Assembly (NCBI GenBank): GCA_043797615.1
Contig: JAZDPK010000035.1
Location: forward strand, 3,523 to 67,522
Source: Parcubacteria group bacterium
GTDB lineage: Bacteria > Patescibacteriota > Patescibacteriia > UBA11705 > JABHMO01
DNA: 64,000 nt
Reading direction: 5' to 3'
A program made the position numbers and the translations under genes. How positions within the stretch are numbered: position 1 is the first letter of the stretch; each line of letters starts with the position of its first letter. The notes beneath the pieces were generated by a model that ran no database searches, was not told the origin of the DNA, and saw nothing but the letters and a program-made list of their open reading frames with translations. This document shows positions 29,768-49,039 of this stretch, piece after piece.

Positions 29768-29908
29768 ATCCTTACGCTGTCATTGCGAGGAGCTTCAACG
29801 ACGAAGCAATCTGCATTGACAGCGGTAATAGTATAGTAATCGTACCCGATTGCTCTTAATTTTTCAAGTATAATAACAAAAAATCACCGAAATATATCGT
29901 TGATTTTA

Positions 29909-30009
29909 TGGTGGGCCGGGATGGATTCGAACCATCGAAGGCGCAAGGCCAGCAGATTTATGCCGCTTCAAGCGGCACCCCGCAGAATGCGGTGGCAGTC
30001 TGCCCCGTT
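29909..30009 (-). pseudogene. 5'-truncated tRNA-Tyr with a 35-nt insertion in the anticodon
   Basis: Minus strand reads AACGGGGCAGACTG-[35 nt, 29961-29995]-TAAATCTGC...GGTTCGAATCC...CCCACCA; the 5' acceptor strand and most of the D-arm are absent. Confidence 0.8.
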
Positions 30010-30256
30010 ATTTGATTCCATTGACTAATTTTTTGAACGCTTCGCCGCCTTTATATGATTTGATTTGCATCTCGCGCTTATAAGCTTCATTTTTAGTCCC
30101 AAAATTTTCAGTATACACAACATGCCATGGTCTGCCGGTTTTTGTTGAGCGAACTTCGCCGCTATTATGTTGTTTTAACCTGTTTGCCAAATTTTCCGTG
30201 TGTCCTGTGTAATATTTTTTGTTAATTTCACTTTGTTGAATATAAACTGTATACAT
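30008..30256 (-). CDS. Small stand-alone GIY-YIG nuclease
   Basis: VYI...YYTGHT.NL..RL.QHN.G....TK..RPW...E...A..RE..IK. Confidence 0.9.
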   Translation of the reverse strand: MYTVYIQQSEINKKYYTGHTENLANRLKQHNSGEVRSTKTGRPWHVVYTENFGTKNEAYKREMQIKSYKGGEAFKKLVNGIK

Positions 30257-30265
30257 TGATTTTTA

Positions 30266-30351
30266 TGGTGGGCAGTGTAGGATTTGCACCTACGAAGGCC
30301 GGAGCCAACAGATTTACAGTCTGTCCCGTTTGACTACTTCGGTAACTGCCC
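30266..30351 (-). tRNA. tRNA-Tyr(GTA)
   Basis: GGGCAGT/ACTGCCC acceptor stem, CTGTAAA loop, long variable arm, encoded CCA; atypical T-loop TGCAAAT. Confidence 0.88.
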
Positions 30352-30555
30352 ATGATTAAAGTGCAAAATACAAAATTAAATTAAATTGAGCAATTGCATT
30401 ATATCAGCAAATTAATTTCAATGCAAGTCGCCGAATTTCGTGTTATGATGTTAATTGCTTTTAATGAATGGCTAAAATTAAACGTTTAACGAGAAAAATT
30501 GTAATATTTTCTAATTTTCACGTTATAATAGCAGAGGGGTTATTAACCAATCATT

Positions 30556-48537: not shown

Positions 48538-48611
48538 TCGGGGATCGTCTAATGGTAGGACGCCTGGCTCTGGCCCAGGTAATCCTGGTTCGAATCCAGG
48601 TCCCCGAGCCA
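48538..48611 (+). tRNA. tRNA-Gln(CTG)
   Basis: TCGGGGA/TCCCCGA acceptor stem, CCTGG-CTCTGGC-CCAGG anticodon arm, GGTTCGAATCC, encoded CCA. Confidence 0.93.
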
Positions 48612-48763: not shown

Positions 48764-49039
48764 ATGTTGAGCAAATTTTTTTATGTTTATGTTCTTTTGA
48801 GTCTAAAAGATAAAAAGTTTTATATCGGTTTTACAAATGATGTTGAAAGACGGCTGCTTGAGCATCAGCGCGGTGAAAACGTGTCGACGGCTAAGCGATT
48901 GCCTGTAGCGCTTATTTATTTTGAAGCTTTCCAATCAAAGAAGGACGCACTACGCAGAGAAAGTTATTTTAAAACATCAAAAGGGAAAACAACTTTAAGA
49001 CAAATGATAAGAGAAAATTTGCATGATTTAAGTATGTAA
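48764..49039 (+). CDS. Small stand-alone GIY-YIG nuclease
   Basis: YVYVLLSLKD..FYIGFT.D..RR..EH..G...ST..R.P..LIYFE...DA.RRE.YFK. Confidence 0.92.
   Translation: MLSKFFYVYVLLSLKDKKFYIGFTNDVERRLLEHQRGENVSTAKRLPVALIYFEAFQSKKDALRRESYFKTSKGKTTLRQMIRENLHDLSM

Follow-up and report, generated by a model that had tools for sequence, protein, structure and literature searches.

Two described kinds of small GIY-YIG nuclease invite comparison with the locus reported here. Single-domain GIY-YIG proteins of the cd10448 (Ssn) type, such as SsnA of Neisseria meningitidis, cut only single-stranded DNA (ssDNA), beside a hairpin repeat that flanks their own gene, and their authors remarked on a repeat-gene-repeat layout like that of an insertion sequence (IS) (Chenal et al. 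2025, PMC11893778). These proteins are the sole characterised members of their family and are sought as ssDNA tools; the word tRNA occurs 0 times in the main text of that paper (PMC11893778). SegB is a free-standing GIY-YIG homing endonuclease encoded in the tRNA gene cluster of T4/T6 phages (PMC2330249). Its cuts fall inside tRNA genes and promote tandem tRNA-Tyr+segB repeats, which form by recombination on microhomology (PMC13096335, 2026). Here we describe a locus at 29900..30351 of a 64,000-nt stretch of a Parcubacteria group bacterium (contig JAZDPK010000035.1, positions 3,523 to 67,522), called the window below. It joins an intact tRNA-Tyr gene, a minimal GIY-YIG nuclease gene and a second, hairpin-split partial tRNA-Tyr, and is probably a selfish tRNA-resident cassette in which a single-domain Ssn-like nuclease and its cognate hairpins spread by recombination on tRNA homology.

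A tRNA-Tyr gene, a GIY-YIG gene and a hairpin-split tRNA copy

The window corresponds to contig C8 of a 1.11-Mb CPR-type genome (G000; 73 contigs, 46% GC, 97.6% complete). On its minus strand lies an intact tRNA-Tyr(GTA) gene (30266..30351; ARAGORN and the Rfam tRNA model RF00005, 57.5 bits, E=1.5e-11) of class II, with a long variable arm, an encoded CCA, the acceptor strands GGGCAGT/ACTGCCC and the T-loop TGCAAAT. A search for other tRNA-Tyr genes, proposed in an earlier note on this DNA, returned this copy alone in the 73 contigs (ARAGORN). Its CCA is followed by a 9-nt leader, TAAAAATCA (30257..30265, minus), and by the ATG of an 82-amino-acid (aa) single-domain GIY-YIG nuclease gene (30008..30256, minus; open reading frame (ORF) and Pfam PF01541). 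This order, an intact tRNA-Tyr 9 nt ahead of the nuclease ATG, had been read from the letters in the earlier note, and ARAGORN, Rfam and Pfam bear it out.

A second, divergent tRNA-Tyr copy begins one base past the TAA of the nuclease gene; the stop codon abuts this fragment, with no clear overlap of the kind claimed before. The copy is 5′-truncated, as had been noted, and starts at about position 24, so that the first ~23 nt, with the D arm and the acceptor 5′ strand, are absent. In an alignment made by eye with relatives' tRNA-Tyr, its left part, GGGGCAGACTG (29996..30006, minus), equals tRNA positions ~24-34, that is, the 5′ strand of the anticodon stem up to G34. A 35-nt insert (29961..29995, minus) follows exactly between G34 and T35. 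DNA folding resolves it into hairpin 1 (HP1; 29978..29995, minus; CC-A-CCGCA TTC TGCGG-GG, 18 nt) and hairpin 2 (HP2; 29961..29977, minus; TGCCGCT TGA AGCGGCA), which abuts T35. The length and exact position given earlier for this double hairpin hold; the loops had been read on the plus strand (TTC and TGA on the tRNA strand), and HP1 is longer than had been noted. The right part (29909..29960, minus) runs from TAAATCTGC to CCCACCA and covers positions 35-76 plus the CCA, with the acceptor strand CCGGCCC and the T-loop TTCGAAT.

Directly after the fragment, TAAAATCAA (29900..29908, minus) repeats the nuclease leader. The ends CCCACCA-TAAAA(A)TCAA, described earlier as shared, are indeed seen on both tRNA-Tyr copies, and TAAAA(A)TCAA is common to both because it is the leader of the nuclease gene. 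By comparison with G004 and G066, described below, TAAAATCAA is probably the stump of an older unit of tRNA 3′ part, leader and nuclease.

In a fold computed for ssDNA, what is left of the anticodon stem pairs to close off a junction containing the two hairpins (-24.6 kcal/mol, z = -2.98). ARAGORN labels the fragment a 97-nt tRNA-Ser(tga), a miscall that arises because HP2 imitates an anticodon arm; the genuine tRNA-Ser(tga) is present on another contig. The Rfam tRNA model did not match the fragment, for which tRNA-Sec alone was returned (15 bits, E=9). The fragment is not a chance resemblance, since its 3′ half is 94-96% identical to the tRNA-Tyr of relatives and the 46-nt layout of its hairpins recurs in eight other genomes. 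In keeping with the earlier note, the 35-nt insert is far too short for a group I intron, and no intron family appeared in the Rfam scan at E<=10.

The nuclease consists of the catalytic domain alone

Pfam PF01541 covers residues 1-67 of the nuclease (60.1 bits against a cut-off of 22.6, E=2.6e-16). Nine residues, Y4, Y15, G17, R25, H29, E49, R60, E61 and K65, are invariant among 16 homologues; these include the two Tyr of GIY/YIG, an Arg and a Glu, which we take to be catalytic. As judged from the sequence, the catalytic site is intact. The AlphaFold model (pLDDT 93.3) has the order strand-strand-helix-strand-helix-helix, with a three-stranded sheet packed by helices as in the GIY-YIG superfamily. 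The closest folds are UPF0213 BH0048 and the Slx1 nuclease domain (TM 0.70; root-mean-square deviation 2.0 for Slx1), followed by the nuclease domains of I-TevI and UvrC. Foldseek against the PDB returned nothing at E<=0.001, its top rows nonetheless all being GIY-YIG domains, and the best PDB matches by sequence were UPF0213 1zg2 (E=1.7e-5) and Slx1 (E=0.006).

Both Pfam and the model describe a catalytic domain alone, without a DNA-binding domain. Five paralogues from this genome were scanned against NCBIfam (a sixth was excluded from the protein family scans), and the group I intron endonuclease model TIGR01453 was reached only below threshold (17.9-23.5 bits against a cut-off of 56). By analogy with Ssn and Slx1, the protein may act on single-stranded or branched DNA. 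An exhaustive HMMER search yielded 5,690 representative clusters at E<=0.001, 495 of them at E<=1e-10. Many database homologues are 100-130 aa long with N-terminal extensions, probably gene calls that run through tRNA fragments; at one locus (L081 1619-1975, G176) a nuclease ORF without a stop ahead of the tRNA reads through the tRNA (118 aa).

Linkage of the nuclease to tRNA genes

The breadth of the linkage was assessed with one genome per species and a profile of eight close homologues, keeping the best 80 of 173 relatives. They represent many lineages of Patescibacteria as well as records of Ignavibacteria, Melioribacter and Bacteroidales. A tRNA gene lies within 300 nt of the nuclease gene in 78/80 (within 100 nt in 76/80) and on the same strand in all 78; the two loci without a tRNA are short contigs. 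The tRNA is located downstream of the nuclease in 63 cases and upstream, as in the window, in 15. Serine isotypes prevail (41), followed by Tyr (25), Pro (5), Thr (4), Gln (2) and Gly (1). An extra 3′ side of the anticodon arm occurs outside the intact tRNA at 31 of the 80 loci, and in 22 a perfect GC hairpin abuts it. The earlier proposal that nuclease and tRNA form a linked unit is well supported by these homologues.

We mapped the adjoining tRNA on a nuclease tree (106 proteins, 83 columns). The label changed 38 times, against a mean of 55.6 in shuffles, and a value as low was reached in 0/200. The window's clade has 17 rows, of which 16 are at tRNA-Tyr and the last (L092) has a tRNA-Tyr fragment alongside; at this comparative level, the preference of the nuclease lineage for tRNA-Tyr expected in the earlier note is present.

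Among closer relatives, the linkage is patchy. The 40 nearest genomes supplied 34 tRNA-Tyr loci, and a GIY-YIG gene is joined to tRNA-Tyr in four (G002, G016, G021 and G004). The first three have the order 5′ fragment with hairpins, nuclease, intact tRNA. G004, from the same family as the window's genome, has the window's order, with the intact tRNA and then CCA, 9 nt and ATG. Past a contig break (L022) lies a 3′ fragment with the double hairpin; behind it the same leader recurs, ahead of a nuclease gene that has lost an internal part, and another fragment comes last. In all four loci, a hairpin abuts |TAAATC, the 34/35 boundary.

A wider search covered 400 genomes of the class, with a comparison set picked by BLAST score to the query. 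A contiguous tRNA-Tyr and nuclease match of 74% nucleotide identity was found in G066, whose protein is the best homologue (75% aa identity). At this locus (L052), a fragment is followed by the same leader and a truncated second nuclease copy, forming a tandem of tRNA 3′ part, leader and nuclease remnant; the hairpin pair of the tandem unit lies at the border of variable arm and T stem. The hairpin-bearing fragment was matched at the sequence level in G169, G383 and G176.

Among sequencing runs, no RNA data set was listed as a match; five DNA runs shared <=0.08 of words, and four of these metagenomes were examined in detail. They contain relatives at 92-95% identity with the same tRNA-nuclease-hairpin order, including contigs of 386 nt (over 29948-30316) and 1576 nt (over 30026-30326). 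Joints that skip ~360 nt were considered as empty sites and rejected: other letters stand between their sides, the sides are short, and they are read as ordinary tRNA-Tyr genes of other organisms.

Conservation and dispersal of the hairpin pair

The layout CTG-HP1-HP2-TAAATCTG (46 nt) is present in nine genomes, the window's and eight others, and in these eight the hairpin pair abuts |TAAATC. In the alignment of the nine, 99.2% of the cells are paired, three pairs have changed on both sides and the loops vary freely. Two of the three compensatory changes are in the window's copy, with one such pair (C-G to A-T) in its HP1. Pairing as high was found in 0/500 shuffles or slid registers. The HP1 motif occurs in 30/80 homologue loci, 10/22 labelled Tyr and 16/38 labelled Ser, where the labels overlap at loci holding several nuclease genes. 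At relatives' tRNA-Tyr loci it was found in 5/16 with a nuclease gene versus 2/54 without, and the whole 1.1-Mb genome holds three occurrences.

That the stems are conserved while the loops are free to change, and that this pair follows a nuclease subfamily through different isotypes and phyla, points to a cognate cis-element and away from an arbitrary disruption. Because the stems are kept across families and across Tyr and Ser loci, and hairpins also occur away from tRNAs, a cognate cis-element or a small mobile palindrome fits at least as well as the passive blocker of a cut site that had been suggested.

Palindromes of this kind are also dispersed in intergenic DNA genome-wide, as a 20-nt palindrome and as 30-nt double hairpins. 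At C37:2779-2892 of the same genome (G000), an open protein-coding gene contains a palindrome of 21 nt and an HP1-type double hairpin of 36 nt, both in frame, with the frame running through them as ..GLPAGQAG.. and ..TTAGGRGPAQSG.., which indicates that mini-palindromes are tolerable within proteins. In a census of GC hairpins, 36/497 were near tRNAs, a 2.7-fold excess over the 2.7% of the genome that lies within 400 nt of a tRNA, by a measure that is too blunt. At L092 (1380-1900), hairpins of the TCCCGCC/GGCGGGA type have loops swollen by AT-rich inserts of 38-39 nt (nested insertion) and sit in a tRNA-Tyr 5′ half that adjoins the nuclease gene.

Resident and putatively imported tRNA-Tyr sequences

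The two tRNA-Tyr copies of the window differ in their affinities. The acceptor GGGTCGG/CCGGCCC is found in 31/34 relatives, including 15/15 same-family genomes. The fragment has this family type, and its 3′ half is 94% identical to that of same-family G001 and 96% to L082. The intact gene is 75-85.5% identical to same-family genes and 89-90% to genes of other families, G066 among them, which also has the closest nuclease. We therefore read the fragment as the 3′ part of the lineage's own tRNA-Tyr, and the working tRNA-Tyr together with the nuclease as probably an imported or converted unit, since its acceptor type is that of other families. The suggestion that the intact copy is a replacement tRNA is strengthened accordingly: its acceptor differs from all 15 same-family relatives, whose CCGGCCC the fragment keeps.

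The T-loop TGCAAAT of the intact copy, which had been called unusual, proved typical of the clade. A G for T at T-loop position 55 (TGCAAAT or TGCGAAT) occurs in 15/34 of the nearest relatives' tRNA-Tyr genes, and, as many tRNA-Tyr genes of the class have it, one may ask how these bacteria deal with position 55.

Further copies in the same genome

Six GIY-YIG genes were identified in the genome by tblastn, five of them at tRNA or transfer-messenger RNA (tmRNA) loci with hairpin-split tRNA pieces. The distance from nuclease to tRNA is 9 nt at Tyr and at Gln-TTG, 137 nt at the tmRNA gene and ~155 nt at Gln-CTG. The paralogue at tRNA-Gln(TTG) ends 9 nt upstream of the tRNA and is preceded by a 5′ part of that tRNA in which GC-rich inserts occupy three places (behind position 10, the D loop and, as a double hairpin, the anticodon). 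Downstream of this paralogue lie two tandem 3′ parts, each with an anticodon double hairpin and a T-loop insert. Despite the three inserts, the pieces are identical to the live gene over 48/48 nt, which speaks for fast, targeted events rather than slow decay.

The fifth paralogue follows a 5′ part of tRNA-Ser(GGA) that consists of positions 1-35, a 30-nt double hairpin and positions 36-42; between this nuclease and the intact tRNA-Ser lies an IS with a DDE transposase (PF01609, E=1.9e-28; L084 750-1706, C73:8049-9005). Another paralogue is located 137 nt downstream of the tmRNA gene. The sixth gene, on contig C28, is not near a tRNA; it is flanked by GAAGCAATC repeats, related to the repeat at 29779-29810 described below. 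The paralogues at other tRNAs carry hairpin pairs different from that of the window's locus.

A second module lies within the window on the plus strand. It consists of tRNA-Gln(CTG) (48538..48611; ARAGORN), followed by hairpins with copies of the tRNA-3′-end-like GGCGCYGCCA, and ~155 nt downstream of the tRNA a second GIY-YIG paralogue of 33% identity (48767..49039; tblastn, ORF). The hairpins are built on GAACTACTCG/CGAGTTC, pair with the tRNA 3′ end and regenerate GGCGCYGCCA. The same hairpin and end mimic follow tRNA-Ser(GGA), tRNA-Leu(CAA) and the tmRNA gene on other contigs.

An exact-word scan with inspection found hairpin-split partial copies beside ~11/43 tRNA genes, mostly without a nuclease gene. 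The inserts fall into a few sequence classes and sit in cloverleaf loops, at about position 10 or the D loop, in the anticodon and in the T loop. Split copies without a nuclease gene were seen for tRNA-Ala, Glu, Cys, Ser(tga), Ser(gct), Leu(caa), Arg(tcg) and Phe (contigs C2, C15, C19, C28, C35, C40 and C61), and the same 22-nt perfect palindrome is in the T loop of a Cys fragment and of a Ser fragment.

Flanking genes, candidate promoter and dispersed repeat

The five ORFs neighbouring the nuclease gene encode UvrB, a sigma-70 factor, a DUF4349 protein and two proteins without a Pfam match; the nuclease gene is placed between uvrB and the sigma-factor gene on a bacterial chromosome. No integrase was detected among these five ORFs by Pfam, in line with the earlier note. 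An integrase-borne island at the tRNA gene was considered and rejected, there being no integrase and the repeated tRNA part being divergent and comprising positions 24-76.

By eye, a promoter-like TTGCAT-17 nt-TATAAT with a TG ahead of the -10 box was located ~47 nt upstream of tRNA-Tyr (30398..30426, minus). A consensus promoter and terminator scan called neither this promoter nor a terminator read by eye; the first hexamer of the promoter has 3/6 matches. From this candidate promoter, the tRNA, the nuclease gene and the fragment could be transcribed as a single transcript.

A dispersed repeat, GTCATTGCGA...GAAGCAAT (29779..29810, plus), lies 97 nt downstream of the fragment. It has the form CTGTCATTGCGA..(10-36 nt)..GAAGCAATCT, with flanks that resemble the Neisseria NTS (GTCATT...AATC). 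The genome holds 13 complete copies, G008 and G030 have many matches, and in the four metagenome runs the summed depth is in the thousands. The repeat is possibly a boundary element of the cassette; its membership is uncertain.

Proposed mechanism and alternative explanations

The explanation we favour builds on the observed anatomy, linkage, isotype clustering, hairpin conservation, tandem units and mosaic. The cassette would comprise a GIY-YIG gene for the catalytic domain only, a working tRNA gene and one or more partial tRNA copies, which keep the anticodon arm with a GC hairpin pair between positions 34 and 35. Having no evident promoter of its own, the nuclease gene would ride on the tRNA promoter, as a trailer in the window and as a leader in most relatives. 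The nuclease may recognise the hairpin-loaded anticodon arm in single-stranded or branched DNA, and breaks there may be repaired by recombination on short tRNA homologies. Such repair would duplicate units of tRNA part and nuclease and would let a foreign cassette recombine into the resident tRNA gene. The outcome in the window would be a mosaic, with a tRNA-Tyr and nuclease like the pair of another family and, downstream, the resident 3′ part. This type of cassette is widespread and apparently undescribed: our literature searches, with supplements 13-14 of PMC11893778 outside their scope, turned up no report of mini GIY-YIG cassettes linked to tRNA genes or of tRNA fragments split by hairpins.

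Several findings weigh against this explanation. At least eight tRNA loci have hairpin-split fragments with no nuclease gene nearby, and hairpin elements also occur far from nuclease genes, in intergenic DNA and in frame in a protein gene; the hairpins may move independently of the nuclease. The working tRNA keeps an uninterrupted anticodon arm, and a nuclease aimed at the arm would need an unexplained restraint. The SRM pattern HGTCWY..RNCYNB had 7 hits in the genome against 2.2 +/- 1.6 in 30 shuffles (maximum 7), none of them at tRNA/GIY-YIG loci. The four metagenome runs yielded no species with both an empty and an occupied allele, the nuclease tree is poorly resolved (SH-aLRT 80 for the window's clade), and the argument for import rests on an 86-nt gene and a BLAST-selected class sample.

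The nearest rival is a classical homing endonuclease for double-stranded DNA (dsDNA), which would cut the uninterrupted tRNA-Tyr at or near 34/35 and cause the cassette to be copied in with co-conversion of the tRNA, the hairpins merely destroying the leftover target. The Tyr junction is indeed always at 34|35, a donor-like intact tRNA beside a resident-type 35-76 is what co-conversion from a break there predicts, and SegB cleaves inside tRNA genes (PMC13096335). We nevertheless regard homing of this kind as unlikely. The protein is a bare 82-aa catalytic domain without a DNA-binding domain, and its characterised single-domain relatives (Ssn) leave dsDNA uncut in the part of the literature covered. 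If the hairpins did no more than block the site, their stem sequence would have no need to be preserved between families or between Tyr and Ser loci; moreover, the working tRNA still has the presumed target and in G004, G169 and G176 is identical to the fragment around the junction. Passive decay would require no targeting at all: slippage would duplicate tRNAs, the spares would decay, mobile mini-palindromes would settle in them and GIY-YIG genes would hitch-hike on tRNA promoters. It would account for the hairpin-split pieces at ~11/43 tRNA genes, most without a nuclease gene, and for the 20-nt palindrome and 30-nt double hairpins scattered genome-wide, yet it is improbable in the face of adjacency in 78/80 homologues, always on the same strand and across phyla, of an HP1 motif that tracks the nuclease gene (5/16 loci versus 2/54), of a junction that is exact and recurrent, and of tRNA-Gln pieces that are still 48/48 nt identical to the live gene with three inserts.

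A module of benefit to the host would have nuclease and decoy tRNA pieces protect or regulate tRNA loci, through defence against integration, processing or termination signals, or replacement tRNAs that escape toxins. The family is large, with the 5,690 representative clusters given above, its catalytic residues are intact, and the fragment retains the T arm and the acceptor 3′ strand, the usual target of integrases. tRNA-Tyr is also a known target of defence nucleases according to the portion of PMC13096335 considered. The cassette is, however, patchy among relatives (4/34 tRNA-Tyr loci), leaves truncated and tandem remnant copies, jumps between isotypes and has no conserved partner genes, all typical of selfish DNA, and we give a host function very little probability. 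A further alternative is a second functional tRNA, made from a tRNA-Tyr by splicing out an intron or joining split parts; in its favour, the insert falls within the anticodon loop and the stem on either side remains able to pair. This explanation is scarcely credible: the acceptor 5′ strand and D arm (about the first 23 nt) are missing, the Rfam tRNA and intron models gave no match, 35 nt is far below group I intron size, and the 97.6%-complete genome has no splicing endonuclease PF01974 (EndA) in a search that matched 4 archaeal controls.

Beyond the selfish tRNA-resident cassette that we favour, a bolder version, which we put forward tentatively and with considerable doubt, would make these cassettes a new autonomous class of mobile elements. 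The anticodon arm loaded with HP1 and HP2 would be the branched ssDNA site of a minimal Ssn/Slx1-like nuclease; the element would home into tRNA-gene loops, chiefly of class II Tyr and Ser, carry or regenerate a replacement tRNA, and in this way cause tRNA genes to be replaced horizontally in Patescibacteria and in genomes of the Ignavibacteria/Bacteroidales type. If true, a nuclease cassette of 300 bp would routinely enter the essential tRNA genes of ultra-small bacteria, duplicate them and exchange them. This would explain the mixed tRNA-Tyr types within one family, and the Ssn family would gain a natural role outside Neisseria, its first. It would also offer a candidate natural substrate for a minimal nuclease family, a three-way DNA junction on an anticodon arm. 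The locus further carries a warning for annotation, with its tRNA-Ser call on a relic by ARAGORN, ORFs extended through fragments and assemblies that break at the repeats.

Comparison with known systems

Two further systems share single traits with the locus. Slx1 and UPF0213 (YhbQ-like; PDB 6seh, 1zg2) are its best matches in sequence and fold. Branched DNA is the substrate of Slx1, and an anticodon arm loaded with the hairpins would itself be branched; the RING domain and the partner Slx4 are found on the Slx1 side only. The Rickettsia palindromic elements are miniature palindromic insertions tolerated within genes. Likewise, short GC palindromes are dispersed here in a small genome, some in frame in a protein gene; in contrast, those described here are much shorter (15-36 nt), occur by preference where tRNA-derived DNA forms loops, and have a nuclease gene linked to them.

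The likeness to SegB consists in a GIY-YIG gene among tRNA genes and next to tRNA-Tyr, and in tandem units of tRNA-Tyr and a truncated nuclease gene, as in G004 and G066. SegB is much longer and has a separate DNA-binding part. It is phage-borne and cuts dsDNA, whereas the window's gene is on a bacterial chromosome, and the portions of the SegB reports considered describe no hairpin inserts or hairpin-split tRNA pieces. One trait of the SegB type is absent: the window protein is an 82-aa catalytic domain only and is not joined to a DNA-binding domain.

With the Ssn proteins, as far as the parts of their description covered here extend, the locus shares a single-domain GIY-YIG protein of ~80-95 aa (82 aa in the window, below the 150-aa limit for Ssn), a gene flanked by its own GC hairpin repeats, homologues with differing cognate hairpins, and the IS-like layout of hairpin, gene and hairpin. 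Even the hairpin cores are similar, TCCCGCG..GCGGGA in NTS versus TCCCGC GGA GCGGGA at the tRNA-Ser paralogue. Under the terms looked up, the Ssn RefSeq table has no Patescibacteria rows, and Supplementary data 4 gives Melioribacter roseus as cd10448-positive without SRM enrichment (PMC11893778); the Melioribacter homologues of the window protein sit at tRNA-Ser. The difference from Ssn is that here partial tRNA copies hold the hairpins, at fixed positions of the cloverleaf, and that the nuclease gene is joined to a tRNA gene. The cassette would work like a blend of Ssn and SegB and is not assigned here to either, as the SRM pattern does not match its hairpins and the DNA-binding domain of the SegB type is absent.

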